Shown: positions 1 to 13,465 of the stretch, in pieces
Layout: each line of letters starts with the position of its first letter
Numbering within the stretch: the first letter of the stretch is position 1
Assembly: GCA_041398665.1 (NCBI GenBank)
Contig: JAWKUH010000006.1
Location: 130,596 to 194,595 of the forward strand
Length of the DNA: 64,000 nt
Reading direction: 5' to 3'
DNA from: Planctomycetota bacterium
GTDB taxonomy: Bacteria > Planctomycetota > UBA1135 > GCA-002686595
Notes under the pieces: generated by a model
The model's input: the letters and a program-made list of their open reading frames with translations, nothing else
What the model was told of the DNA's origin: nothing
Database searches by the model: none
Position numbers and translations under genes: made by a program

Positions 1-823
1 AGTCGAACGCGAAGACGCCGCGCACGACCGCCGCGGCGGGACCCTCGAAGCGCACCATCGCGTCGATCCACGCGCCGACGCCGGCCTCGCGCTTGAAGAA
101 GCGCGGGTCGACGAGGTTGCGACTGCCGGTGTAGGCGATGCGACCGTCGACCACGGCGATCTTGCGGTGGTTGCGCAGGTCCGCGCGCGCGAACACGCTG
201 CGCAGGAGCCCGGTCGGCAGCGCCGCGACGAGCCGCACGCCCGCCGCTCGAAGACGCCGCGCCGAGTCCGACGCGAGGAACGCCTCGCTCCCCGTCGAGT
301 CGGCGATGGCGCGACAGCGCACGCCGCGCCCCGCGGCTCGGACCAGCGCGTCGACGACGTCGGCGACGCGACCTCCCTCGCTCCAGATGTAGAAGCCGAG
401 GTCGCAGCTCTCGCGCGCTGCGTCGACGTCGGCGACGAGCCGGTCGAACGACGCGTCGTCGTCCGTCAGGAGCTCGACGCGGTGCGCGGCGACCGGCGGG
501 ATCCCGACCGTCACCTCGGCCTGACGCGCGAGGTCGGCCGAGGCGTCGCCGCCGACGCTCGCGCGGAACGCGAGGAGTTCCCGACACAGCCGCTCGACCT
601 CGCCGCGCCGCGCCTCGATCCGTCTCCGCCGACGCGGACCGACGCGGCGCTCGCCGAACATGAGGTAGAGCACCGCGCCGACGAACGGGAGGCTGAACGC
701 CACGGCGAGCCACGCCATCGACACCCCGACCGGCGAGCGGCGCGAGATCACGCGCAGCGACAGCGCGACCACGAGCACCCAGTGCGCGGCGAGCAGCGCG
801 GTGGAGGCGGCCGGTGCGCTCAT
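1..823 (-). CDS. cls: Cardiolipin synthase / phospholipase-D family protein; window holds the N-terminal ~270 aa, C-terminus lies before position 1
   Basis: Minus-strand translation starts MSAPAAST..., has two N-terminal TM helices then an HxKxxxxD motif (HRKIAVVDGRIAYTGSRN, reverse complement of nt ~150-200). ATGA overlap with upstream dedA stop. Confidence 0.75.
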   Translation of the reverse strand, partial: MSAPAASTALLAAHWVLVVALSLRVISRRSPVGVSMAWLAVAFSLPFVGAVLYLMFGERRVGPRRRRRIEARRGEVERLCRELLAFRASVGGDASADLARQAEVTVGIPPVAAHRVELLTDDDASFDRLVADVDAARESCDLGFYIWSEGGRVADVVDALVRAAGRGVRCRAIADSTGSEAFLASDSARRLRAAGVRLVAALPTGLLRSVFARADLRNHRKIAVVDGRIAYTGSRNLVDPRFFKREAGVGAWIDAMVRFEGPAAAVVRGVFAFD

Positions 824-1617
824 CCCGCTCGACCGCCCTCGTCGCGACCGCTCGACCCGAGCTCCTCCGCCTCGAGCTCCTCCTCGTCCTCCGCGCGTTC
901 CACCGCCGCCCGCGCGGCGCGCGCGACGAACAGCACGGCGACGAGCGCGGCGACCGCGCCGACGACGTAGAGCGCGTCCTCGAGTCCGGCGCTCTCGCGC
1001 GTCCGACCGACGACGCCGGCGGCTCGGTGACCGGCGACACCGACCCAGACCTCGACGCCGAGCGCGGGCAGGTGCGCGAGGCTCGCGACGAGGAACGGCG
1101 CGAAGCGCACGCCGGCTCCGGCCAGGGCGAAGCTCACCATCGCGACGTTGAGCGGCGCGAGTCGGATCACGGTCTGCAACCCGAGCCCGCGGTGGACGAC
1201 CGCGCGCTGCATCGCACCGAGCCTCGGCGCGTGCGCGACGAGTCGTTCGACCGGACCCGCGAGGACGCCGCGCGCGACCGCGAACTGCAGCGACACCGCC
1301 AAGAGGTGACCGATCGCGACCGCCGCCGCGCCGCGCGGGAAGCCGAGGAGCGCTCCGGCGGCGACCGTGAACACGCTGGCTGGCGCGAGCAGCGTCGTCG
1401 CGACGGTGTACGCGAGGGCGAAGACCGCGACCCCGATCGCGCCGTGCGCCGCGACCCAGGCGCGCCAGGCCTCGAGGTGCTGCACGAACTGGTCGCCGGC
1501 CCCGAACAGGAGCGCCGCGCCGACGACGAGGAGGAGCGCGACGAGCGCCGCGCGGACCCGATTGGTCCGGGGCGAACGTTCGTCGCCCGACCGAGCCGCT
1601 GCGCCGACGTCCGCCAT
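820..1617 (-). CDS. DedA / TVP38-TMEM64 family membrane protein
   Basis: 265-aa hydrophobic protein (MADVGAAARS...) with the typical DedA core LAYTVATTLLAPASVFTVAAGALLG. Real-looking part of minus ORF 820..2022. Confidence 0.7.
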   Translation of the reverse strand: MADVGAAARSGDERSPRTNRVRAALVALLLVVGAALLFGAGDQFVQHLEAWRAWVAAHGAIGVAVFALAYTVATTLLAPASVFTVAAGALLGFPRGAAAVAIGHLLAVSLQFAVARGVLAGPVERLVAHAPRLGAMQRAVVHRGLGLQTVIRLAPLNVAMVSFALAGAGVRFAPFLVASLAHLPALGVEVWVGVAGHRAAGVVGRTRESAGLEDALYVVGAVAALVAVLFVARAARAAVERAEDEEELEAEELGSSGRDEGGRAG

Positions 1618-1667
1618 CGCCTCCGACGATACCCCCGGAGCGACCCGGACCGGCGCGGCACGGCCCG

Positions 1668-4090
1668 GTGATCGAAGATCGGCGGGCGGACCGCAGAAAG
1701 GCTCGCGCCGATGCCGACAGAGGAGCGATGGGCTGGGCCCTCCTCGTCGGACTCGTGGCTGCGCTGGGTGCGGCGCTCCTCGGCGTCGCGCTGGTCCGTC
1801 GCAGTCGCCGCGAGCAGCACGGGACGCTGCACGAACGGCGCCGCGCGGAACGCACCGGTGCGGCGAGGGCGGAGCTCCAGCACCCCGTCGTCGACCTGAC
1901 GCGCTGCCTCGGGTGCGGCACGTGCGTGCGCGCGTGTCCCGAGGAGGGCGTGCTCGCGCTGCTGCACGGGCAGGCCGTCGTCGTGCGCGGCTCGGGCTGC
2001 GTCGGGACGGCGAGCTGTGCACGCGAGTGTCCGACCGGAGCGATCACGGTCACGCTCGCCGATCTCGCGACGCGGCGCGACGTGCCGGTGCTCGACGAGG
2101 GACTCGAAGCGGTGGGGCGCCCCGGTCTGTTCCTCGCGGGCGAGGTGACGGCGCACGCGCTCGTGAAGACCGCGGTCGACCACGGCACGCTGGTCGCCGC
2201 GACGGTGGCGGAGCGCGCGCAGCGCGAGGGCGCGGCGCGCGAGACCGGCGTGCTCGACCTCGCGATCGTCGGCGCGGGTCCGGGCGGACTCGCGTGCGCG
2301 CTGGAGGCGAAGCGTCTCGGGCTCGACTTCGTCCTGCTGGAGCGCGAGAGCGACCTCGGCGGCACGGTCGCGCGCTACCCGCGCCGCAAGCTCGTCGCGA
2401 CACGACCCATCGACCTCCCGCTGCACGGTCGGCTGCCCGAGCGCACCTACCTCAAGGAGGAGCTGATCGAGCTGTGGCGCGGGCTCGCCGCGGAGCACGA
2501 CCTGCCCGTCGTGTGCGACTCGACGTTCGAGTCGCTCGACCGGGACGACGCGGGCACCTACACCGTGCACGCGAGCACCGGCGAGGTGCGCGCACGCAAC
2601 GTGTGCCTCGCGATCGGGCGGCGCGGCGTGCCGAACCGGCTCGGCGTCCCGGGCGAGGACGCGCCGAACGTCGCGTACAGCCTGCTCGACGCGGACGCCT
2701 ACGAGGGCGAGCGCATCCTCGTCGTCGGCGGCGGCGACAGCGCGGTCGAGGCGGCGCTCGGTCTCACCGCGCGCGGTGCGAACGAGGTCACGCTGAGCTA
2801 CAGGCGCTCCGACTTCTTCAGGCTCGAGCCCTCGAACGAGCGCCGCATCCGCGAGGCGGCGGCGAGCGGGCGCGTCACGGTGCTGTTCGAGAGCGAGGTG
2901 CTCGAGATCGACGCGGGCGAAGTGCGCCTGCTCGCGCGTTCGGCGGACGTGGCGGGTCGCGGCACGGGCCGCACGAGCACCGACGGAGCCCCGAGCCTGG
3001 TGCCGGGCGGTCCGGGGCGCGTGCACCACGGCGCGTCGCACGAGACGCTCGAACGTCGCGTCGCCGTCTCGACCGAGGCGCGCGCCGAGCTCGTGCTGCC
3101 GTGCGACCGCGTGTTCGTGATGGTCGGCGGCACGCCGCCGATCGCACAGCTCGAGGCGGCGGGCGTCAGCTTCGACCCGACGCTGCGCCCGGCGGCGCCG
3201 GAGATCGGCGAGCAGGGCAGCGGCCTCGTCCGCGCGCTCGGCGCGGGCTTCGCCGTCGCGCTGTTCGGCCTCGCGTTCGCGCTGTGGCACCGCGACTACT
3301 ACCTCCTGCCGACGTTCGAGCGCGCGGCGTCGCCGAAGCACGACCTCCTGCGGCCCGGACTCGGACTCGGGCTGTGGCTCGGGGTCGGGTCGATCGCGCT
3401 CGTCGTCGCGAACCTCGCGTACGTGCTGCGCCGCTCGCCGCGCTCGCGCGTGCGCTTCGGGTCGCTCGCGAACTGGATGACGGTGCACGTCGCGACGGGC
3501 GTGCTCGCGCTGCTCACCGCACTCGTCCACTCCGGGATGGAGCCGCGCGACACGGTCGGGGGCCGAGCGCTGTGGGCCATGGTCGCGCTGTTCGCGACGG
3601 GAGCCGTCGGGCGCTACCTCTACGCCTACGTCCCGCGGGCGGCGAACGGGCGCGAACTCGAACTCGCCGAGATCCGCGGCCGACTCGCGCGTCTGGCGGA
3701 GGGCTTCGTCCGTGTCGACGCGCGACTCGCGGCGCTGGTGCGCGACGAGACGCTGGAGCTGGTCGAGCGGCGGCAGTGGAACACGTCGTTGCCGGCGCGC
3801 CTGCTCGCGCTCGTCGGCGCGGAGACCGGGCTGCGCCGACTTCTGCGCCGCGTGCGGACCGAGGGCGCCGCCGCCGGACTCGCGCAGGACCAGATCGACG
3901 AGGTGACGGAGCTCGCGCGCCGCGCGCACCGCTCGGCGCTCGCGACGGCGCACATCGACGACCTGCGCGGGATCATGGCGAGCTGGCGCTGGCTGCACCG
4001 CTGGGCGCGCTGCTCCTGCTCGTGCTCGTCGCGCTGCACGTGGTCTACGCGCTGGCGTACGGCGGCTACCTCGCGGGAGGCGCGCGGTGA
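1668..4090 (+). CDS. Membrane-bound fusion oxidoreductase: N-terminal TM helix, two 4Fe-4S ferredoxin-type CxxCxxCxxxCP motifs, FAD/NAD(P)-binding pyridine-nucleotide-disulfide-oxidoreductase-like domain, C-terminal 5-TM domain with conserved His. Apparent 1-nt frameshift near 4003-4008.
   Basis: Frame of ORF 1668..8069 gives CLGCGTCVRACPEEG and CVGTASCARECPTG, GAGPGG and GGGDSAVE dinucleotide-binding motifs, then TM helices (FALWHRDYY, WMTVHVATGVLALLTALVHSG). The last TM helix and stop are read in the frame of ORF 1367..4090 (LLLLVLVALHVVYALAYGGYL*). Start could alternatively be M at 1728. GTGA overlap with next gene. Confidence 0.65.
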
Positions 4091-6225
4091 ACGCCGACGA
4101 TCCGCCGCCGCCGTCCGTCGCGTGGTACCGCCGCCCGCAGTTGTGGGTCGCGGTCTGCAGCGCCGTGCTCGTCACGACGCTCGGCGTCGTCGGCAAGGAC
4201 CGCAAGTCGCCGGGTCCGCTCGCCGCGGCGCACGCGCGCGTCGCCGAGCTCGCGGGCGGTGCGAGCTGCTCGGAGTGCCACGGCGGCTGGTTCCAGGACA
4301 TGTCGAGCGCCTGTCTCGACTGTCACGAGGCGATCGAGTCGCAGATGGACGACGGGCGCGGCCTCCACGGGCGACTCGCCGAGGACCGGCGCGCGTGCGC
4401 GTCCTGCCACTCCGACCACCACGGCGCGAACTTCGCCATGGTGAACGACGTCTCGTTCCGCAAGGCGGGCGTGCCGAACGTCGACGCCTTCGACCACTCG
4501 CTCGTCGGCTTCGACATGGACGGGAAGCACGTCGAGCTGGCGTGCACGGACTGCCACGCGCACGCCTTCGACGAGGTCGTCCCGGAGGGCGTCACGCGCT
4601 TCACGGGACTCTCGCAGCGTTGCGCGGCGTGCCACGAGGACGAGCACCACGGCGCGTTCGGCCAGGACTGCGCGAGTTGCCACGTGCAGGAGAGCTTCAC
4701 CGAGCACGTCGCGACGTTCCACGACGACGTCCTCCCGCTGATCGGCGGGCACGGCGGCATGGACTGTCGCGCGTGCCACGCGGAGGGCGAGGTGCACAGC
4801 CTCGAGGTCGTCGCGGGCAACGGCTCGAAGCCGACGGCGCGCGCCTGTCTCGACTGCCACGACTCGCCGCACGGCGAGGCGTTCGTGACCCGCAACGCCC
4901 GCGACTCGCGCACCAGTCTCGAGGCGTCGTGCGTCGTCTGTCACGCCGCGGCGCACACGAGCTTCCGCGACGAGGCGCTCGAAATCACCGCGGAGCAGCA
5001 CGCGGCGTCGGGCTTCCCGCTCGCGCTGCCCCACGACGAGGTGACGTGCGACGGATGCCACGCGCCGGAGCCGGAGGACTTCGCCGCGCGCTACCCGGGT
5101 CGCGACGCCGATCGTTGCGCGGCGTGCCACGAGGACCCGCACGGCGGGCAGTTCGCGACGGGACCGTTCGCGCAAGAGGGCTGCGTCGCCTGCCACGGGC
5201 GCGAGCGCTTCGAACCGCACGGTTTCACCGCGGAACTGCACGCGCGGGCCGCCCTGCCGCTCGAGGGCGGTCACCTCGGGGCGGCGTGCGAGGACTGCCA
5301 CACCGTCGCCCACGACGGCGAACCGCGCACGTTCCGCGGCACGAGCGACACGTGCTCGGCGTGCCACGAGGACGCGCACAACGGGTTCTTCGACTCGCGC
5401 ACACAGGCGCTCGAACCGGTGGCGCACGGCGACTGCGCGCGCTGTCACGGCGCGACGGCGTTCGCGCAACTGGTGCCGGAGAGCTTCGACCACACGCGCT
5501 GGACGGGCTTCCCGGTCGACGGCGCGCACGAGGCGGAGGGCTGCGCGAGCTGTCACGCGAGCACGGCGGAGCCCGACGCCGCGGGCCGCACGTTCGGACG
5601 CGTCGCGCCCGAGCACGGCGAACTCGTCGCCATGCACGCCGGGCCCGAGGTCGGCCGCTCGTGCGCGGCCTGCCACGAGGACCCGCACGGCGGCCGCTTC
5701 GACGCGGAGGGACTGCCGGAGCGGTACGACGAGCGCGAGGGCTGCGCGCGCTGCCACACCGACGCGTCGTTCCGCGACCTCTCGCGCGGCTTCGACCACG
5801 GACTGTGGACCGGTTTCCCGCTCGACGGCGCGCACGGCGAACAGTCGTGCAGCACGTGCCACGCGCCGCTGCGCGCACCGACGACGGAGGGGCGCACGTG
5901 GGGCTTCGCGAAGGGCGCGGACTGCGCGTCGTGCCACGCCGACCCGCACGGCGGTCAGTTCCGCGAGCGCGACGCGCAGGGGACCCTCGGAGCGACGGAC
6001 TGCGCGCGCTGCCACCAGAACACGACGTCGTTCGCGAAGCTGCGCTTCCGCCACAACTGGGACTCGCGCTTCAAGCTCGACGAAACGCACGCGAAGGTGG
6101 ACTGCGCGCAGTGCCACCGCCCCGAGGTGATCTCGGGTGCGCCGACGTTCCACTACAAGCCGCTCGGAACGAATTGCACGGACTGCCACGGGGTGGGGGC
6201 GAGTTCGCTGAGGAAGGACGGGTAG
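4087..6225 (+). CDS. Periplasmic multiheme cytochrome c, about 23 CxxCH motifs, paired-CXXCH / cytochrome c7-like repeats, N-terminal signal anchor
   Basis: 712-aa ORF with roughly 23 CxxCH motifs (CSECH, CLDCH, CASCH ... CTDCH), many in CH..DxH / doubled arrangement. Hydrophobic N-terminus LWVAVCSAVLVTTLGVV without lipobox. Confidence 0.85.
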   Translation: MNADDPPPPSVAWYRRPQLWVAVCSAVLVTTLGVVGKDRKSPGPLAAAHARVAELAGGASCSECHGGWFQDMSSACLDCHEAIESQMDDGRGLHGRLAEDRRACASCHSDHHGANFAMVNDVSFRKAGVPNVDAFDHSLVGFDMDGKHVELACTDCHAHAFDEVVPEGVTRFTGLSQRCAACHEDEHHGAFGQDCASCHVQESFTEHVATFHDDVLPLIGGHGGMDCRACHAEGEVHSLEVVAGNGSKPTARACLDCHDSPHGEAFVTRNARDSRTSLEASCVVCHAAAHTSFRDEALEITAEQHAASGFPLALPHDEVTCDGCHAPEPEDFAARYPGRDADRCAACHEDPHGGQFATGPFAQEGCVACHGRERFEPHGFTAELHARAALPLEGGHLGAACEDCHTVAHDGEPRTFRGTSDTCSACHEDAHNGFFDSRTQALEPVAHGDCARCHGATAFAQLVPESFDHTRWTGFPVDGAHEAEGCASCHASTAEPDAAGRTFGRVAPEHGELVAMHAGPEVGRSCAACHEDPHGGRFDAEGLPERYDEREGCARCHTDASFRDLSRGFDHGLWTGFPLDGAHGEQSCSTCHAPLRAPTTEGRTWGFAKGADCASCHADPHGGQFRERDAQGTLGATDCARCHQNTTSFAKLRFRHNWDSRFKLDETHAKVDCAQCHRPEVISGAPTFHYKPLGTNCTDCHGVGASSLRKDG

Positions 6226-6305
6226 GTCCGAGCTCCGCAGACTTCCTCGAACTCCACTCCCGTCGCGCGGCGGAGGCGGCCGATCTGCTCCCTCCGGGGT
6301 CCTCC

Positions 6306-8069
6306 ATGCGAAGGAACGGGGCGGGGAGAGCGGCGGCGGCGTGGACCGCGGTGTGGGTGCTCGCGGGTGCGGCTTCGGCCGACGGCGCGACGGCTCCCGC
6401 CGTCGACGCGCAGGAGGAGGCGCAGGACGAGGTGCGCCTCGAGCTGCGCGTCACCGTCGTCCTCACCGAGCGGCGCGCGTCGGTCGACCGCGGCGCGAGC
6501 GACGGGCTCGCGGTCGGCGACGTCGTCTGGTTGCTTCCGCGCGAGGGCGGCCGGTTCCGCGCGTCGGTCGTCGCCGTCGAGGAGCGCTCCGCGGTGGTGG
6601 AGCTCGACGGCGCGGACGTCGCGCTGGCCGCGGGGCTGAAGGCCGAGGCGACGGTGCCGGCGTCGCGCTTCGAGAGCGAGGACGGCGCGAGCGAACCGAC
6701 GGGCGCGACCGACGCGCCGACTCCCGCCGCGAACGCTTCGAACGACGCGACCGGTGCGCGTCCAAGCCCGAACTCGATCTGGCGCGACCGCGACGAGGAG
6801 TTCGCGGACGGGATGCCGCTGCTCGCCGGCGTGGAGGCGGTGTCGCCCGGCGACCGCACGCCGTTCGTGCGCGGTCGCGTGTGGCTCTCCGTCGACGGGA
6901 CGTACACGGGACAGGACGGGCGCTCCGACCAGTTCGTGCGCGCGGGCACCGACGTCACGTACGAGAACCCGTTCGGACAGGGAGGCGTGCTCGACCTCGG
7001 CGTCGACTGGGAACGGTTGCGCTTCGACCGTCCCGAGCTCGACGACCTCGCCGACACCGAGCTCCGCTTCGAACGCCTCTCGTACGCCTTCGGCGGCACG
7101 CGCTTCGACGGCGACCGCTACCAGTTCGGGCGCTTCCTGCAACACGGCATGCCCGAGTTCGGCGTGCTCGACGGCGCGGAGTGGTCGCGGCGCACGGACG
7201 AGCACCACAGCTTCGGTGCGAGCGTCGGCTACATGCCCGAACCCGACGCGGAGTACGAGAGCGGACACGACTTCCAGCTCGCCGGCTGGTACCGCTGGAC
7301 GTCGGACGCGACGGAGCTCGCAGCGGCGAAGGTCGGCTTCCAGAAGACCTGGCACGACGGCGCGCCGGACCGCGACCTCGTCGTCCTCCAGGGCCACTAC
7401 CTCCCGCGCGACGGGTGGAGCACGCAGGCCTCGGTGTGGATCGACGCGACGGGCGGCGGCGAGATCGAGGGCTCGGGGCCGTCGGTGTCGCACGCCTACC
7501 TCTCGGCCTCGCCGTACACCGCGAGCCGCTTCGGGCTCGAACTCAACTACAGCTACCTCGACTTCCCGGAGCTCGAGCGCGACGAGTACCTGCCGACCCC
7601 GGCACCGATCGAGATCGCCGACCAGCGCGTCCACCGCCTCGGCGCGGACTGGTGGGTGCCGATGGGGGACGGCTCGCGTTTCACGGGTCGACTCGGCGGG
7701 TGGAGCGACGCGACGAACGACGGCGGCGACGTCGAGGTCGGCGTCGACGTCGTCGACATCGTGGGGCGCGGTTCGCACCTGCGGCCGCTCCTGTTCCTCG
7801 CGCGCGGCGCGGGCACGAGCGTGTGGGGCACGCGGCTCGGACTCTCGTTCGGCGGCGAGAAGGTGCGCTACGACCTCTTCTACGAGCTCGCCAACTACCG
7901 ACAGAACGGGTTCCCCGGGGGCAACGACGACTTCGTGCAGCACCGGCTGCGGACGAGCGTCTCGTGGTACCCGACGCCGCACTGGGCGCTCACCGCGCAC
8001 GTCGACGGCACGACCTACCACGAGGAACGCGGAGCGACGGCGGGGGTGTACGCGCAATGGAGTTTCTGA
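6306..8069 (+). CDS. Outer-membrane beta-barrel (porin-like) protein, putative porin component of a porin-cytochrome complex
   Basis: Signal peptide MRRNGAGRAAAAWTAVWVLAGAASA, acidic linker, then alternating hydrophobic/aromatic beta-strand pattern with many Gly/Asp/Tyr/Trp. C-terminal AQWSF (terminal Phe typical of OMPs). Lies between two cytochrome genes. Confidence 0.6.
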   Translation: MRRNGAGRAAAAWTAVWVLAGAASADGATAPAVDAQEEAQDEVRLELRVTVVLTERRASVDRGASDGLAVGDVVWLLPREGGRFRASVVAVEERSAVVELDGADVALAAGLKAEATVPASRFESEDGASEPTGATDAPTPAANASNDATGARPSPNSIWRDRDEEFADGMPLLAGVEAVSPGDRTPFVRGRVWLSVDGTYTGQDGRSDQFVRAGTDVTYENPFGQGGVLDLGVDWERLRFDRPELDDLADTELRFERLSYAFGGTRFDGDRYQFGRFLQHGMPEFGVLDGAEWSRRTDEHHSFGASVGYMPEPDAEYESGHDFQLAGWYRWTSDATELAAAKVGFQKTWHDGAPDRDLVVLQGHYLPRDGWSTQASVWIDATGGGEIEGSGPSVSHAYLSASPYTASRFGLELNYSYLDFPELERDEYLPTPAPIEIADQRVHRLGADWWVPMGDGSRFTGRLGGWSDATNDGGDVEVGVDVVDIVGRGSHLRPLLFLARGAGTSVWGTRLGLSFGGEKVRYDLFYELANYRQNGFPGGNDDFVQHRLRTSVSWYPTPHWALTAHVDGTTYHEERGATAGVYAQWSF

Positions 8070-8734
8070 AGAACGTGCTGCAGCGCCTCCGCCGCCTCGG
8101 CGTCCCCGCGCTCGGGACCGTCGTGCTCGGCGCGTCGCTCGTCGCGTGCGCGCTCCAGCGCACGGGCGGGCTCGAAGTGCACCGCTGGTGGGCCGGCCTC
8201 GGACCCGTCGTGCCGCACGAATCGTTCCCCGAGGACTGCTCGCTCTGCCACGTCGGCGACACCTGGAACACGCTGCGCGCCGACTTCGAGTTCGACCACG
8301 AGGAACGCACGGGCGTGCCGCTGCTCGGCGCGCACTCCGCGGCGCAGTGCCTGCGCTGCCACAACGACCGCGGTCCGGTGCAGACCTTCGTGCAGCGCGG
8401 CTGCGCGGGTTGCCACGAGGACGTCCACCAGGGGCACCTCGGCACGAACTGCTCGGAGTGCCACGAGCAGAACACCTGGCGCGCCGTCGGACAGGTCGAG
8501 CGGCACTCGCGCACGCGCTTCCCGCTGACCGGCGTGCACGCCGTCACGAGCTGCCAGCGCTGCCACCCCGGAGTCGACTCCGGCCGCGTCGCGCCGACGA
8601 GCACGGAGTGCGTCTCGTGCCACCTCGACAACCTGAACTCCGCCGTCGTGCCCGACCACTTCGCGTTCGGGTGGGTGAACGACTGCGGTCGCTGTCACCT
8701 GCCGACGACGTGGCAGGAAGCGGTCGGCTTCTGA
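8057..8734 (+). CDS. Lipoprotein heptaheme cytochrome c (outer-membrane cytochrome candidate)
   Basis: 225 aa with lipobox LVAC. 7 CxxCH motifs (CSLCH, CLRCH, CAGCH, CSECH, CQRCH, CVSCH, CGRCH). Start overlaps OMP stop by 13 nt. Confidence 0.8.
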   Translation: MEFLKNVLQRLRRLGVPALGTVVLGASLVACALQRTGGLEVHRWWAGLGPVVPHESFPEDCSLCHVGDTWNTLRADFEFDHEERTGVPLLGAHSAAQCLRCHNDRGPVQTFVQRGCAGCHEDVHQGHLGTNCSECHEQNTWRAVGQVERHSRTRFPLTGVHAVTSCQRCHPGVDSGRVAPTSTECVSCHLDNLNSAVVPDHFAFGWVNDCGRCHLPTTWQEAVGF

Positions 8735-8744
8735 CCGCGCGGGA

Positions 8745-10913
8745 TCAGCGCTCCGTCGGGTCCTGCGAGAGGTAGCCCAGACTCTCCAGTTCGTCGCGGA
8801 GGTCGCTCGCGAGGTTGCCGAGGTCGGCGGGTTCCCGGTCCGGCGCGACGGCTCCGTCGACGACGTCCGCGACGCGACGTGCGAGCGCGTCGGGCCAGGA
8901 CGCGTCGGCGCTCCGGATCGGACGGAGCTCGTCGGGATCGGTCGCGAGGTCGAACGCGCGCCGCGGTGAGAGCGCGACGGGGTCGAGCATCAGCTTCGTC
9001 GCGCCGTCCGTCGCCGTGAGGCGGGCGTCGCGCCTCGCGCGGGCGAACGGAGCCGCGTCGTCGCCCGACGTCCACGACGTGAAGGCCAGCGCGTCGTCGC
9101 GCTCCTCGGCGAGGTCGCGACCGCGGAAGCTCGGCGGCGCCGCGACGCCGGCCAGGCCGAGGAGCGTCGGCGCGAGGTCGATCGTCGACGTCGCGTCGCG
9201 CCGCACGCCCGGCTCGACACCGGGGCCGCTCCAGAGCAGCGGCACGCGCGTCTGCGACTCGTACGCCGGACCGATGTGGCGGAACCAGTCGTGGTCGCCG
9301 AAGGCCTCGCCGTGGTCGCTCGTGAACAGGAGGTGCGAGTTGGCGCGCCAGCCCTTCGCGTCGAAGTCGCGCAGCCAGTCGCCGAAGGCGGCGTCGAAGT
9401 CGAGCATCTGCGCGCGGTAGAGCGCGAGGATCTCGCGCATCTCGGGCCGCGCGTAGTCGCCCGACATGCGCTCGAGCAGTTCGCTCTCGCTCGGTCCGTC
9501 CGCCGGGAGTCCGACGGCGACGCGCGACGCGTCGGACGGCTCGAGCGGGTCGTGCGTGAAGTACGTCTGCACGAACAGGAACGTCGGCCGACCGTCGTGG
9601 GCGTCGAGCACGGCTTGCGCGCGCCGCAGGCCGCTCGTGCGGCTCCGCGAACCCTGGACGTACGACTCGAAGCCCTGCGCCAGCCCGAAGGCCGACGACG
9701 TGTACGCGCCGTCCGTGACCGCGACGGTGCGGTAGCCGGCGTCGCGCAGACTCTCGGCGAGCGTCTCGACGCTCGCCGGGAGCGCCTGCGTCGAACTCTC
9801 CACCCGGTGCCCGCGCGGCAGCTGACTCGCGAAGAGCGACGCGTGCGACGGCAGCGTCCACGTCGCCGCGGACCACGAGTTCGCGAACTCGATCGACCCG
9901 CGGCGGAGGCGCTCGAGGTTCGCGAGGTCGAGGTCCCGCGGCGAGTCGGCGTAGCGTCGCTGGGTCGAGAGTCCGTCCGCGCGGAAGGTGTCGGCGAGGA
10001 AGACGACGAGGTTCGGTCGGTCGGGGTCGGTCGGCGGCTCGTCCGACGGCACGGGGCCGAGCATCGGCGCGGCGAACCCCGTGAGGGCGAACGACCCGCT
10101 CGTCTCGAAGCGCAGCGTCGCGCGCTCCGCGATCGGCGGGAGGTCGACGGAAGCGAAGTGGAAGCTGCCCGTCGGCGAGTCGTCGCCGGGGTCGACGGTG
10201 CGCGACCACACCGGTCGGCCGTCGAGCAGCACGCGGAACCGGACCTCGCCCTCGGCGACGGGGAGCGTCGAGAAGCAGCCGAACGAGAGTCGTCGTTCGC
10301 CGCCGGGAGCGATCGTCCGCGCCGTGCTCGTCCCGGGCAGTACGAGCATCCCCTCGCCCGCGTAGGGGCCGACGTCGACGCGCCACACGTCGTCGTCCGG
10401 TTCGCCCACCGGGACGGGGACGAGGTGCTCGATGCGGACCGGTCGCGGCTCGCCCTCCTCGAGCCGCACGAACAGCGCGTCGTCGTTGAAGGAGAACGTG
10501 CCTCTCGGCGCCGACGCGGGGTCGAAGGCGACGTCGCCGATGGCGAGCTGTGTCAGCGGTCGACCGTCGACGACGACGACCTGCTCGATCGGGGCGACGG
10601 CGCTCGTGCTCAGGTTCGGCAGGTGCCGCGGCGCGTAGAACCCGCCCTCGAGGGGCAGCGGCATCCAGGCGTCGTCGTCGTAGGCGACCGAGATCCAGGG
10701 GCGACCGCCGACCTCGACGAGTCGCACGACCGAGCGGTCGTGGCGCGCGATCTCGAGCGGGTACTCGACCTCGCCGTCGTCGAAGTCGGTCGCGAGGTGC
10801 ACGCGACCGGCGTCCGCATCGGGGAGCGCGCGCGGCGCTCCGCCGCAGCCCGCGAGCGACAGCACGACGGCGGTCGCGGCGAGCCGCCGGGTCTGTCGAG
10901 AGGGGCGCGACAT
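8745..10913 (-). CDS. Sulfatase-family lipoprotein (arylsulfatase / alkaline-phosphatase superfamily)
   Basis: Lipobox LSLAGCGG. Sulfatase signatures TWTLPSHASLFASQLP and LLFTSDHGEAFGDHDWF. Confidence 0.75.
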   Translation of the reverse strand: MSRPSRQTRRLAATAVVLSLAGCGGAPRALPDADAGRVHLATDFDDGEVEYPLEIARHDRSVVRLVEVGGRPWISVAYDDDAWMPLPLEGGFYAPRHLPNLSTSAVAPIEQVVVVDGRPLTQLAIGDVAFDPASAPRGTFSFNDDALFVRLEEGEPRPVRIEHLVPVPVGEPDDDVWRVDVGPYAGEGMLVLPGTSTARTIAPGGERRLSFGCFSTLPVAEGEVRFRVLLDGRPVWSRTVDPGDDSPTGSFHFASVDLPPIAERATLRFETSGSFALTGFAAPMLGPVPSDEPPTDPDRPNLVVFLADTFRADGLSTQRRYADSPRDLDLANLERLRRGSIEFANSWSAATWTLPSHASLFASQLPRGHRVESSTQALPASVETLAESLRDAGYRTVAVTDGAYTSSAFGLAQGFESYVQGSRSRTSGLRRAQAVLDAHDGRPTFLFVQTYFTHDPLEPSDASRVAVGLPADGPSESELLERMSGDYARPEMREILALYRAQMLDFDAAFGDWLRDFDAKGWRANSHLLFTSDHGEAFGDHDWFRHIGPAYESQTRVPLLWSGPGVEPGVRRDATSTIDLAPTLLGLAGVAAPPSFRGRDLAEERDDALAFTSWTSGDDAAPFARARRDARLTATDGATKLMLDPVALSPRRAFDLATDPDELRPIRSADASWPDALARRVADVVDGAVAPDREPADLGNLASDLRDELESLGYLSQDPTER

Positions 10914-11115
10914 GGAACAGCGTCGGCTGCGCGCCAGGGTAGCAGCTCGCGTCCGACGATCGCGCGGCGTCACCGACTCGTCCGCGCGATCGACGTCGGC
11001 GCGCGACCGCTGCGCGGGCCGACGTGCGTCGGAGCGGCGACGGAGCGCATTCGCTCAGGACTCTCTCGGGGTTCCCTCCGCGAGCGCCGCGCCGCGTGCG
11101 ACGTAGGTTCGGGCC

Positions 11116-12540
11116 ATGCAGCTCGTCGATCGCCGCGCGTTCCTGGCCCGATCCTCCGTCCTCGTCGCGACGCTCGCCGCCGGACGGCACCTCGTCCCGC
11201 GCGTGCCGCGCGCCGACGTCGAGGCCTTCTTCCGCGCCGTCGCCGCGGGCGACCTCGCCGAGGTCCGCGCGAGGCTCGCGGCGGCACCGGAACTGCTTGC
11301 AGCCGTCGACGAGCTCGGTCGCAGCGGGTTCGCCGTCGCGCTGCTCCGCGGCCGCGTCGAGGTGGCGGCGCACCTGCGGGCCGCCGGTCACGCGCCGGAT
11401 CTGCACGAAGCGGCGCTCGCACTCGACTGGGACCTGTTCGAGCGTCTCGCGACGGCGTCCCCGGGACGAGCTGACGCGCTGCACCCGATCGGCGGGACCG
11501 CGATGCACGCGGCGGCACTCGGGGGAGCGGGTCCCGCCATCTGGCACGTCTACGCCGCGCCGGCGCACCCGAACCCCGACCGGCCGAGCGACCGCGTCCC
11601 CTCGCCGCTGCGCGCGGCGTTCGAGTACGGCGACCTCGAGGTGGCCGAGCTCACCGCCGCCGCGCTGCTCGCCAACGGCGCCGACCCGAACGCGCGCGAG
11701 CCGCGCGGGGACGGCGCGCTCCACGCCGCGGCGCGCCGCGGTTCGACCGAGCTCGTCGAGCTGCTCGTGCGCGTCGGAGCGGACACGCGAGCGCGCGACG
11801 AGGACGGACTCGACGCGAAGGAAGCCGCGGAGCGCGCGGGGGCGAGCGCCGTCGTCGCCCTCCTCGAGCGCGCCGACGAGCTGCCGCGCGACCGCTCGAC
11901 CTCGCGTCGCGCACGCACGGTCGACGGCGAGTCCTACGCGCCGCCCTCGATCGACGACCTGCCCCTCGCGGAGCGGGGCAGGGTCGTCGGGAACGCCCAC
12001 CGCGACCTCGACGCGGTCCGTTCGGCGGTCGAACGAGAGGAACGCTTCGTCCACTCCGTCGCGACGACGACGGAGGGCGCGGTCGAGGCGGCGGCGCACA
12101 TGGGGCGCCGCGACATCGCCGAGTACCTCCTCGAGCGCGGCGCGCCGTGCTCCCTCCCGACGGCTGCGTCGCTCGCTCTGCGGGACCGCGTCGACGCGCT
12201 CCTCGCCGAGGATCCGCTGCGCGTGCACGAGCACGGTGCGCACCGCTATCCGCTCCTCTGGTACGCGGCGATCGGCGACGGCGGCGTCGGACTCGCCGAG
12301 CGCCTCGTCGCGGCGGGTGCGGACGTCGAGAGCCAGCACCACCTCGGGACGACGGCGCTCCACCTGGCGGCGCGCGACGGTCTGACGGACCTCGTCGCGT
12401 TCCTCCTCGAGCACGGCGGCGACCCGACCCGCGTCGGGAGACAGTTCCAGGGTCGGCGCGAGACGCCGATCGACCTGGCGCGGGCGCGCGGGAACGAGCG
12501 CGAGCTCGAACTGCTGGAGCGCGCCGCACGCGCGCGGTGA
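11116..12540 (+). CDS. Tat-exported ankyrin-repeat protein
   Basis: Twin-arginine motif RRAFLARSSVLVATLAAG. Repeated G-x-T/A-LH-AA...G-x-x-x-V-x-LL motifs (GTAMHAAALGG, GDGALHAAARRGSTELVELLV, GTTALHLAARDGLTDLVAFLLEHGGDP). Confidence 0.65.
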   Translation: MQLVDRRAFLARSSVLVATLAAGRHLVPRVPRADVEAFFRAVAAGDLAEVRARLAAAPELLAAVDELGRSGFAVALLRGRVEVAAHLRAAGHAPDLHEAALALDWDLFERLATASPGRADALHPIGGTAMHAAALGGAGPAIWHVYAAPAHPNPDRPSDRVPSPLRAAFEYGDLEVAELTAAALLANGADPNAREPRGDGALHAAARRGSTELVELLVRVGADTRARDEDGLDAKEAAERAGASAVVALLERADELPRDRSTSRRARTVDGESYAPPSIDDLPLAERGRVVGNAHRDLDAVRSAVEREERFVHSVATTTEGAVEAAAHMGRRDIAEYLLERGAPCSLPTAASLALRDRVDALLAEDPLRVHEHGAHRYPLLWYAAIGDGGVGLAERLVAAGADVESQHHLGTTALHLAARDGLTDLVAFLLEHGGDPTRVGRQFQGRRETPIDLARARGNERELELLERAARAR

Positions 12541-12580: not shown

Positions 12581-13465
12581 ATGGTGAGGTACCGCTTCGA
12601 CGACTTCGCGTTCGACCCGACGACGGGCGAGATCACGCGCGGCTCGGAACACGTCGCGCGCCTCGCGCCGCAGCCCGCGCGGTTGCTCGAACTCCTCGTC
12701 GAGCGCCGCGGCGAACTCCTCGGACGCGACGAGATCCGCGCCGCCCTGTGGTCCGACGTGCAGGTCGAGTTCGATCAGAGCCTCCACTTCTGCGTGCGCC
12801 AGGCGCGACAGGCGCTCGGCGACTCGGGTCGCGAGCCGCGGTACGTGCTCACGCTGCCGCGCCGGGGCTACCGCTTCGGCGCCGAGGTGGTGATCGAGGA
12901 CGAGCGCGAGGGCGTCCGCGATCCGGCGCCGCCGTCCGCGCACGAAGTCGACGCGAGCCGGGAGACCGCGCCGCCCGCGTCGTCGCGTCGCTCCGCGCGA
13001 CGGCTCGTGCTCGTCGCCGTCCCGCTGCTCGTCGCCGTGCTCGCCGCGGCCGCGTACCTCGTCGGACGCGAGGACGACGTCGTGCTCGCGATCCTCCCGT
13101 TCGAGGTCCCGCAGGCGTTCGCCGCGACCTTCGCGCCGGGCGTCGCGGACGTACCGACGTTGCTCGTCGACCGACTCGTTCGCGAGGAGCGTCTCGCCGT
13201 CGTCGGTCCCACGACGACCGAGGGGCTCGCGGTCGGACCCGCGCCGATCGCCGCGGTCGCCGCCGCGACGGGCGCCGCGTTCGTCGTCAACGCGCGCTTC
13301 GTCCGCGACCCGGAGAGCGGCGGACTCCTCGCGGAAGTCGTGCGCTCGACCGACGGCGTCCACGTGTGGACGCAGCTGTTCGGCCGCGACGCGCGACCGG
13401 AGGAGATCGCCGATGCCGTGGCCGCGGGGCTGCGCTCCGAGCTCCTCCACGGGGATCGGCGCTGA
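12581..13465 (+). CDS. Membrane-anchored CadC/ToxR-like transcriptional activator (OmpR-type winged-helix N-terminus, single TM, periplasmic C-domain)
   Basis: N-terminal trans_reg_C-like region (ARLLELLVERRGELLGRDEIRAALW, YVLTLPRRGYRF) followed by TM helix LVLVAVPLLVAVLAAAAYLV. Confidence 0.7.
   Translation: MVRYRFDDFAFDPTTGEITRGSEHVARLAPQPARLLELLVERRGELLGRDEIRAALWSDVQVEFDQSLHFCVRQARQALGDSGREPRYVLTLPRRGYRFGAEVVIEDEREGVRDPAPPSAHEVDASRETAPPASSRRSARRLVLVAVPLLVAVLAAAAYLVGREDDVVLAILPFEVPQAFAATFAPGVADVPTLLVDRLVREERLAVVGPTTTEGLAVGPAPIAAVAAATGAAFVVNARFVRDPESGGLLAEVVRSTDGVHVWTQLFGRDARPEEIADAVAAGLRSELLHGDRR

Follow-up and report, generated by a model that had tools for sequence, protein, structure and literature searches.

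How electrons could be passed from a cytoplasmic carrier to the outside of a planctomycete cell is the question raised by a gene cluster at positions 1668 to 8734 of a 64,000-nucleotide (nt) stretch of Planctomycetota DNA, hereafter the window. Four genes on the + strand, g1 to g4, encode a fused inner-membrane oxidoreductase, a 23-heme c-type cytochrome, an outer-membrane protein (OMP) and a heptaheme lipoprotein cytochrome (Table 1). They are tightly linked: the stop codon of g1 overlaps the start of g2 in a GTGA at 4087-4090, g2 and g3 are 80 nt apart (6226-6305), and g3 and g4 overlap by 13 nt (8057-8069), as had been stated in an original prediction made from the sequence alone and as was reproduced here. 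Our reading, to which we assign a probability of about 0.55, is that the locus encodes a trans-envelope porin-cytochrome conduit with a NOX-like fusion as its inner-membrane entry point and with outward electron flow. The more specific proposal that g1 represents a quinone-independent entry module for extracellular electron transfer (EET), in which an NAD(P)H-FAD-iron-sulphur (FeS) protein and a NOX-like di-heme b domain, fused or split according to lineage, feed directly into a 23-heme wire and a barrel, is advanced more tentatively, at somewhat less than even odds.

Searches of the g1 product with hidden Markov models returned the composition that had been proposed for it, i.e. a Fer4 domain, a Pyr_redox_3 domain and a membrane domain with two bis-His pairs. 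Residue numbers of g1 given here count from a GTG codon at 1668; subtracting 20 yields the numbering from the ATG at 1728. Homologues of g1 are 735-800 aa long and share 51-76% identity over 97% of the length. By the positive-inside rule, the N-terminal anchor is predicted to have its N-terminus outside and its C-terminus inside, with the redox domains in the cytoplasm. In the homologue alignment, the FeS domain shows seven invariant cysteines (C80, C83, C86, C90, C111, C117 and C121; pattern CxxCxxCxxxCP plus Cx5Cx3CP) and an invariant H100. With just seven invariant cysteines and His100, one of the two clusters may be of the 3Fe-4S type or His-ligated. The flavoprotein part scored 129.9 bits against Pyr_redox_3 (cut-off 30) and contains the motifs GxGxxG for FAD and GGGDSA for NAD(P)H, with G202, G204, G207, G354-G356 and A359 invariant. 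No redox-active CxxC occurs in aa 197-510, and aa 433-466 form an insert modelled with low confidence. When the whole AlphaFold2 (AF2) model of g1 (mean predicted local distance difference test, pLDDT, of 81) was used as a Foldseek query, only the flavoprotein part was matched, the best matches being the bacillithiol-disulfide reductase YpdA/Bdr, ferredoxin-NADP reductases of the thioredoxin reductase (TrxR) type and TrxR itself (E = 3e-15 to 1e-11). Equivalog membership was not reached for either YpdA (TIGR04018, 125.9 versus 339.9 bits) or TrxR (TIGR01292, 59.3 versus 343.45 bits).

The C-terminal membrane domain consists of five helices in the AF2 model, with a cytoplasmic helical insert of ~115 residues between helices 4 and 5. 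Across 58 fused homologues, W603-x3-H607-x13-H621 on helix 3, G645-x-x-G648 on helix 4 and W773-x3-H777-x13-H791 on helix 5 are invariant, and T644 is nearly so; both W-x3-H-x13-H pairs and the GxxG are likewise invariant in 48 stand-alone homologues. Positive charges lie in the loops 589-600 and 656-770, which by the positive-inside rule would face the cytoplasm together with the FeS and flavin modules. Helices 3 and 5 would run in parallel from inside to outside, with H607/H777 as putative ligands of a cytoplasm-side heme and H621/H791 as those of a periplasm-side heme. Pfam matches of this domain remained below threshold for Ferric_reduct (19.6 versus 28 bits) and DUF4405 (17.1 versus 26.7 bits), a weak match to Ni_hydr_CYTB was likewise sub-threshold, and PF14358 is a precomputed match in several stand-alone and fused homologues. 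In a profile comparison, the His pair of helix 5 aligned with His86/His100 on the heme-ligand helix B of cytochrome b6 (E = 0.05, marginal). Taken at the family level, these matches point weakly but consistently to a cytochrome b. A purified DUF4405 protein binds heme b by experiment (PMC11334425). The same motif set has been described for the inner-membrane proteins (IMPs) of PCC3 and PCC4, two predicted systems of neutrophilic Fe(II) oxidisers (He et al. 2017, PMC5566968; Hoover et al. 2023, PMC9900912), and He et al. (PMC5566968) compared it to NOX/FRE and cytochrome b; we refer to this part of g1 as the IMP domain.

A profile of the IMP domain was searched against 1.84 billion representative proteins (E ≤1e-3, clusters at 50% identity). 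Relatives amounted to 2279 representatives. Fused forms among them measure 730-850 aa, and many others are stand-alone proteins (280-300 aa) that the profile matched from end to end (E = 1e-55 to 1e-29). The stand-alone proteins, all annotated as hypothetical, come from Saprospiraceae, Lewinellaceae, Bacteroidales, an Ignavibacteria-like vent contig and Planctomycetota. The domain is also found in proteins of 380-450 aa and 530-700 aa (P0281, P0292, P0320, P0325 and others), whose N-terminal extensions differ in length from that of g1 and may represent other fusion partners.

Four contexts of stand-alone IMPs were inspected, namely in a Saprospiraceae metagenome-assembled genome (MAG), a Bacteroidales MAG, an Ignavibacteria-like metagenome contig and another Planctomycetota MAG. 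In all four, the membrane protein (289-300 aa) adjoins a separate Fer4 + Pyr_redox_3 protein of 439-443 aa, to which the N-terminal part of g1 is homologous (BLASTP E = 1e-77 to 1e-96). Before or after the pair, these split loci encode a homologue of g2 (20, 23 or 32 hemes; E = 1e-67 to 1e-83) that has the N-terminus SPGxLxxxH, and a g4-like cytochrome with 9-58 hemes. The three that extend far enough have a putative OMP of ~533-547 aa without Pfam match at the position of g3; homology to g3 extends along the entire planctomycete one (hhalign probability 96.9%, E = 1.7e-10), and the Bacteroidales one resembles g3 weakly (probability 56%). What is one polypeptide in the clade of g1 is thus encoded by two neighbouring genes in other lineages, each time within a cluster of this kind, a classical signature of proteins working together. 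Of all the evidence gathered, this adjacency of split genes argues most strongly for the predicted linkage of an NAD(P)H flavoprotein to a His-bearing membrane domain and to cytochromes.

It also bears on the alternative that the conduit is fed from the quinone pool, as by CymA, ImcH or CbcL, with the di-heme domain acting as a quinone-reactive cytochrome b and the flavoprotein serving as an NAD(P)H:quinone reductase or in regulation. A quinone-active cytochrome b was proposed from the same motifs by He et al. (PMC5566968). The best, albeit marginal, sequence match in the PDB is cytochrome b6, and the weakly matching Ni_hydr_CYTB is a family of quinone-reducing hydrogenase cytochromes b. Direct electron hand-over would, however, be expected to leave just the signature found, i.e. 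a flavoprotein-FeS module adjacent or fused to the IMP in three phyla. Moreover, NOX, FRE and MsrQ work without quinones on the same His pattern, and no quinone-site motif turned up in g1, with no search aimed at one. Quinone feeding appears to us distinctly unlikely.

In NOX/FRE proteins and in MsrQ-Fre, electrons from cytoplasmic NAD(P)H pass via a flavin and two stacked hemes b, held by two His pairs on two parallel helices, to an acceptor across the membrane. By analogy, the entry module proposed for g1 would operate on the same principle. As in NOX/FRE, two putative bis-His heme b sites would be formed by two transmembrane helices with a spacing of 12 or 13 residues (H607/H621 and H777/H791). 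The differences concern the remaining architecture: NOX/FRE have a C-terminal plant-type ferredoxin-NADP reductase (FNR; FAD_binding_8/NAD_binding_6), whereas g1 has an N-terminal flavoprotein of the TrxR/YpdA type with two FeS clusters in between, and its membrane domain has five helices, not six. The acceptor is O2, an Fe(III) chelate or MsrP in NOX/FRE/MsrQ and would be a multiheme cytochrome wire here. Membership of the NOX family was ruled out by the sub-threshold Ferric_reduct score and the lack of a C-terminal plant-type FNR in g1.

The candidate for this wire is g2, in which exactly 23 CXXCH motifs were counted, the number given in the original prediction. Its repeats had been described as paired CXXCH motifs. 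One Paired_CXXCH_1 match was indeed obtained, but Cytochrome_C7 of Pfam matched in seven stretches (E = 4.8e-29), and the repeats appear to be mostly triheme modules of the c7 type. Beyond the histidines of the 23 motifs, g2 contains 35 further ones, enough for bis-His ligation. Its N-terminus (window positions 4087-4260) comprises a hydrophobic segment, which may be cleaved off or serve as a membrane anchor, followed by a conserved SPGPLxxxH; this element, SPG(P)LxxxH, is kept from Planctomycetota to Bacteroidota. Among 73 relatives of g2, 55 have 23 hemes and the rest 20, 22 or 26. Heme numbers in relatives rise by three (20/23/26), echoing the 21/24/27 of PCC3 periplasmic cytochromes. No sequence relatives of g2 were found in the PDB at E ≤0.01.

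For g3, structure modelling yielded a 22-strand beta-barrel at aa 187-586 with good confidence (pLDDT 85.4; predicted template modelling score, pTM, 0.79), in keeping with the 16 or more strands anticipated for a porin-like OMP. Neither Pfam nor NCBIfam contains a match for g3, hence no model of the MtrB/PioB type applies. A generic porin without ties to the cytochromes had been considered as the case that would speak against a conduit; g3 is co-conserved with them. The product is 100% identical over its full length to the hypothetical protein R3F34_03570 of a Planctomycetota MAG (NCBI). The barrel is preceded by a small beta domain (aa 42-118; 6429-6659) with a conserved VDRG..DGL..GD motif and by a disordered linker of ~50 residues (6690-6830). 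The beta domain is kept even in the OMP of the split-type planctomycete cluster (L084); it may act as a plug, as a docking site for g2 or in some other role.

We then consider how widely this set of genes is conserved. In a genome scan with one genome per species, at least 570 stretches were found to encode a g1 relative; the best 80 of these all derive from MAGs, and every title naming a phylum says Planctomycetota. Of 63 distinct loci in which 5 kb or more follow g1, 62 keep the order g1-g2-g3-g4. Synteny of the block is thereby confirmed, and a first gene occurring consistently without cytochrome neighbours, the other situation regarded as damaging to the prediction, is not what homologous loci display. 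All computational checks suggested with the original prediction turned out in its favour. The closest cultured relatives of the locus are found in Engelhardtia mirabilis (Planctomycetia incertae sedis) and strain Pla163, and the 4-nt and 13-nt gene overlaps are present in Engelhardtia too. A DUF2959 gene precedes g1 in 52/82 loci, and ResB/CcsA genes for System II cytochrome c biogenesis are located nearby in 23 loci.

Both outer cytochromes are putative lipoproteins. The predicted heptaheme lipoprotein g4 was recovered with its seven CXXCH motifs and its lipobox, the Cys of which is conserved in the relatives inspected; g4 weakly matches the Geobacter dodecaheme cytochrome GSU1996 (PDB 3OV0, E = 1e-4). 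A further cytochrome, g5 (87 aa per heme, lipobox conserved, no sequence relatives in the PDB at E ≤0.01), is encoded in the window ~5 kb downstream of g4, behind three inserted genes. Its homologue directly follows g4 in Engelhardtia and in 33/56 related loci, always with 11 hemes. By this comparison g5 is a displaced fifth member of the system, and the unit is larger than the four genes originally proposed. Clusters as in the window (type A) combine a 23-heme g2, a 7-heme g4 and an 11-heme g5. In type B (loci L038, L039, L047, L054, L057, L058, L065-L067, L075-L077, L079 and L080), g2 mostly has 26 hemes, the g4 homologue is enlarged to 13-28 hemes (360-730 aa) and g5 is missing. Several MAGs carry both types on different contigs.

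The window has a GC content of 68-76% (2-kb windows), with long open frames on all strands and in all frames, and the length of an open reading frame (ORF) is uninformative by itself. One frame starting at 1668 (+) stays open until 8069 (2133 codons), spanning g1, an antiframe of g2, and g3; it is best seen as a high-GC artefact that could trick ORF callers into one giant protein. That the genes themselves are mere artefacts of this sort was ruled out by their GC content at third codon positions (GC3, 0.93-0.94 for each gene), by the localisation of CXXCH and by homologues, which are numerous for every protein of the cluster. Scanning all six frames of the window revealed 41 CXXCH motifs, 23 in g2, 7 in g4 and 11 in g5, and 0 outside these three reading frames. 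Such clustering is far beyond chance.

Judged by the published description of motifs and components, the closest described architecture is PCC3 (and PCC4), itself only predicted. PCC3 comprises an IMP of ~300 aa, a periplasmic cytochrome with 21, 24 or 27 hemes, a porin and an outer cytochrome with 10-35 hemes (PMC5566968, PMC9900912). PCC3/PCC4 and the cluster studied here share the set of an IMP, a long periplasmic multiheme cytochrome, a beta-barrel porin and an outer multiheme cytochrome of variable length. They also share five helices with W-x3-H-x13-H on helices 3 and 5 and (S/T)GxxG on helix 4 (Thr in g1, Ser there), and a periplasmic cytochrome with many hemes (20, 22, 23 or 26 in g2 and relatives) and few aa per heme. 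They differ in that the IMP stands alone in PCC3/PCC4 but forms the C-terminal 291 aa of a ~787-aa fusion in g1, and in that an FeS and NAD(P)H flavoprotein is fused or adjacent here and is not mentioned in the main text of those papers. For the outer cytochrome, 10-35 hemes are given there, compared with 7 in g4 and a further 11 in g5 here, both lipoproteins, and with 13-28 in the type B g4 homologue; the hosts are Proteobacteria there and Planctomycetota, Bacteroidota and an Ignavibacteria-like lineage here. In the literature searched, mostly outside subscription journals, no description of a cluster of FeS-flavoprotein, IMP and multiheme cytochromes was found. New features appear to be an FeS-flavoprotein as partner of the IMP or fused to it, the phyla of the hosts and the lipoprotein nature of the outer cytochromes.

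The likeness to PCC3 raises the possibility that electrons flow inward, with g1 passing them on to NAD(P)+ or ferredoxin; the external donor might be, for example, Fe(II), Mn(II), reduced humics or a cathode. The IMP motif together with a 21-27-heme periplasmic cytochrome, a porin and an outer cytochrome was described in Fe(II) oxidisers, FNRs of the TrxR type are reversible, and multiheme chains conduct both ways. Reduction of NAD(P)+ (~-320 mV) by donors of the Fe(II) type is uphill, however, and entry of electrons into a cell that is negative inside is opposed by the membrane potential. Since inward flow would be doubly uphill and g1 shows no proton- or ion-coupling module, established thermodynamics leads us to prefer outward flow, which from ~-320 mV to a plausible external acceptor would be exergonic and assisted by the membrane potential. 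The hosts, i.e. the Engelhardtia planctomycete clade, Saprospiraceae and Bacteroidales, also are heterotroph lineages. We consider inward flow very improbable.

The original prediction had instead compared the last three genes with the Pcc systems of Geobacter. The triad is there: as in Pcc of Geobacter sulfurreducens (OmaB-OmbB-OmcB) and MtrCAB of Shewanella, a periplasmic multiheme cytochrome, a porin-like barrel and a lipoprotein multiheme cytochrome are encoded side by side. PCC3/PCC4 is nevertheless the better comparator, and curated Pcc/Mtr models were not reached. The GSU2203 decaheme model gave 23.7 versus 325 bits, and, with respect to MtrCAB/MtoAB/PioAB, the DmsE/MtrA model TIGR03508 gave 63.9 bits versus a cut-off of 192.2. 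The periplasmic counterparts in Pcc/Mtr have 8 or 10 hemes rather than the 23 of g2, g3 does not match the MtrB/PioB barrel family, and the MtrB barrel has 26 strands compared with 22 in the g3 model. The input of Pcc/Mtr conduits comes from the quinol oxidases CymA, ImcH and CbcL instead of an NAD(P)H flavoprotein. Membership of the Mtr family was ruled out by the TIGR03508 score, the 23 instead of 10 hemes and the lack of an MtrB/PioB match for g3.

Further systems resemble parts of the cluster. The c7-like triheme modules of g2 (seven stretches) and g4 (E = 1e-4) recall 'nanowire' cytochromes of the GSU1996 type (PDB 3OV0), which differ in having 12 hemes compared with 23 in g2 and an unlike genomic context. 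Hmc and Tmc of sulfate reducers connect a large periplasmic multiheme cytochrome via a membrane cytochrome b to cytoplasmic FeS proteins with no obligatory quinone step; in contrast to g1, they are multi-subunit complexes with a cytochrome b of the NarI/HdrE type and an HdrD-like FeS subunit, and they have neither an NAD(P)H flavoprotein nor an outer-membrane module. The 26-heme cytochrome operon of ANME partner bacteria was rejected for its other context (a peptidyl-prolyl isomerase and a beta-propeller protein), and the porin-multiheme cytochrome cluster of Verrucomicrobia for its periplasmic cytochrome with 8 hemes.

In the electron path that we infer, including its cofactors, protein contacts, donor, direction and physiological acceptor, cytoplasmic NAD(P)H would reduce FAD in the TrxR-like domain of g1. 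Electrons would then proceed via the two FeS clusters to the cytoplasm-side heme b (His607/His777) and across the membrane to the periplasm-side heme b (His621/His791). From there they would enter g2, whose chain of triheme modules could be long enough to span the periplasm, and cross the outer membrane through the barrel g3 holding g4 in or at it. Exit would take place via g4 and g5, or in type B via the enlarged g4, and possible external acceptors include Fe(III), Mn(IV), humic material and a partner cell. Since charge would, as in NOX, be moved outward without proton pumping, such a conduit would be a redox valve or electron sink, not an energy-conserving respiratory chain.

Its physiological role could be that of a dissimilatory sink under oxygen limitation, or lie in reductive iron acquisition or protection. 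Outward flow for a non-respiratory purpose would mean reductive iron uptake as by eukaryotic FRE/FRO, repair at the surface or in the periplasm as by MsrQ-MsrP, or detoxification of oxidants or metals. The TrxR-like GGGDSA and S-Y-R-R motifs suggest NADPH, the anabolic and antioxidant carrier, as donor; the path conserves no energy; and NOX, FRE and MsrQ-Fre, the closest mechanistic analogues, have roles of this kind. Against this, 41 c-type hemes and a dedicated barrel are costly for an assimilatory task of low flux, two paralogous clusters are common in related MAGs, and no iron-uptake or repair-enzyme genes are conserved beside the cluster in the two related loci with gene tables. Such a purpose is unlikely in our estimation, though less so than inward flow or a supply from the quinone pool.

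The window copy itself requires a closer look, because g1 is not a single ORF from 1668 to 4090 as originally proposed. This interval has 2423 nt, no multiple of 3, and the TGA at 4088-4090 is in a different frame from the start at 1668. Frame 0 encodes g1 as far as W-R-W-L-H-R-W (to 4004), and the next frame holds the remaining 28 codons and the TGA. The coding signal changes frame at ~4004-4007, and the C-termini of homologues (WRWLHRW[G/A]A.LL...LHV.YALAYG) correspond to the joined reading of both frames. One base is missing in the G run tgGGc at ~4003-4006. As to the N-terminus, ATG 1728 is a more likely start than the proposed GTG 1668, which lies 60 nt upstream in the same frame, because the consensus start of relatives, MSWxLL, is matched by MGWALL at 1728.

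The frameshift cuts off helix 5, the last helix of g1, which bears two of the four putative heme ligands. If it were real, the cluster could be decaying in this genome, with helix 5 and two heme ligands gone and the input module dead. In line with decay, a protein search found no g1 protein identical to that of the window (best identity 76%), although g3 was found at 100%, which fits an annotation of g1 as pseudogene, and both flanks are rearranged relative to relatives. In the 28 codons beyond the shift, however, GC3 is still 0.93 and every conserved residue is kept, H791 among them; the genes g2 to g5 are intact, and an indel in a G run of a 73% GC genome, on a 215-kb contig, would be a typical homopolymer error of long reads. 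With the g1 tail perfectly conserved, the indel located in a homopolymer and the length of the contig suggesting long reads, an assembly error is probably the cause rather than a true pseudogene, and decay of the cluster seems to us an unlikely, though not negligible, explanation.

Table 1. Positions of the genes, domains and neighbouring features in the window (g1 residues numbered from GTG 1668).
Feature	Position	Strand	Basis or remarks
VTT-domain membrane protein gene	~820-1620	-	Diverges from g1, <110 bp between
g1, fused inner-membrane oxidoreductase	1728..4090	+	~787 aa after repair
g1, N-terminal transmembrane anchor, then RRSRRE	1728..1796	+	Hydropathy scan; long helix in model
g1, ferredoxin-like dicluster domain (residues 73-127)	1884..2048	+	Pfam Fer4_10, E 2.6e-8
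g1, thioredoxin-reductase-like FAD/NAD(P)H flavoprotein	2256..3167	+	Pfam Pyr_redox_3, E 1.6e-37
g1, five-helix membrane domain (C-terminal 291 aa), putative di-heme b	3216..4087	+	Invariant columns, AF2 model
g1, 1-nt frameshift site	4002..4009	+	tgg g.c gcg; three-frame translation, homologue C-termini, GC3 0.93 in shifted frame
g2, 23-heme c-type cytochrome, 712 aa	4087..6225	+	23 CXXCH, 31 aa per heme
g3, outer-membrane protein	6306..8069	+	Signal peptide, beta domain, linker, 22-strand barrel
g4, heptaheme lipoprotein cytochrome, 225 aa	8057..8734	+	7 CXXCH; lipobox LVAC, Cys31
Sulfatase gene	8745-10973	-	Between g4 and g5
Ankyrin-repeat protein gene	11116-12540		Between g4 and g5
Winged-helix Trans_reg_C regulator gene	12581-13465		Between g4 and g5
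g5, 11-heme lipoprotein cytochrome, ~900-960 aa	13619..16501	+	11 CXXCH; lipobox LSGC; start uncertain

In the two related loci for which gene tables exist, no member of the sulfatase, ankyrin-repeat or Trans_reg_C families occupies this position.

Several points weigh against a functional outward conduit and are set against its probability. Planctomycetes of the window lineage are known as aerobic heterotrophs, and we know of no extracellular acceptor for them. The direction of electron flow is not fixed by any sequence feature, and the di-heme domain could react with quinones. Within g1, the Fer4 domain was modelled by AF2 at a pLDDT below 50, and the family-level matches of the membrane domain are all under curated cut-offs or marginal (E = 0.05). 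DUF2959 and ResB/CcsA neighbours are absent from the window, unlike in relatives; with these missing, g1 frameshifted and g5 displaced, the window copy of the cluster may be impaired. For PCC3, which comes closest among the described architectures, the proposed role is Fe(II) oxidation with inward flow to quinones (PMC5566968, PMC9900912). With these points taken into account, an outward conduit entered through the g1 fusion remains the reading that we favour.

The significance of this reading lies in where the electrons would come from. All characterised EET chains of Gram-negative bacteria known to us begin at the quinone pool (CymA, ImcH, CbcL, CbcBA). If NAD(P)H were the start and a NOX-like fusion the way in, the bioenergetic design would be another one, and the conduit would serve as a redox valve and not as a respiratory chain. 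If true, it would provide the first functional clue to the uncharacterised IMP family of PCC3/PCC4, to which the 2279 representative clusters found here would belong, and would make this family a transmembrane electron shuttle, not a quinol oxidase. Large groups regarded as 'aerobic heterotrophs' would possess an electron valve that does not conserve energy, given that at least 570 stretches encode the fused form alone. The phyla that carry the cluster, for instance Planctomycetota other than the anammox lineages, are seldom regarded as electroactive, and to our knowledge dissimilatory metal reduction has rarely been examined in them. Cultured strains with the cluster, Engelhardtia mirabilis Pla133/Pla86 and strain Pla163, make the hypothesis directly testable.

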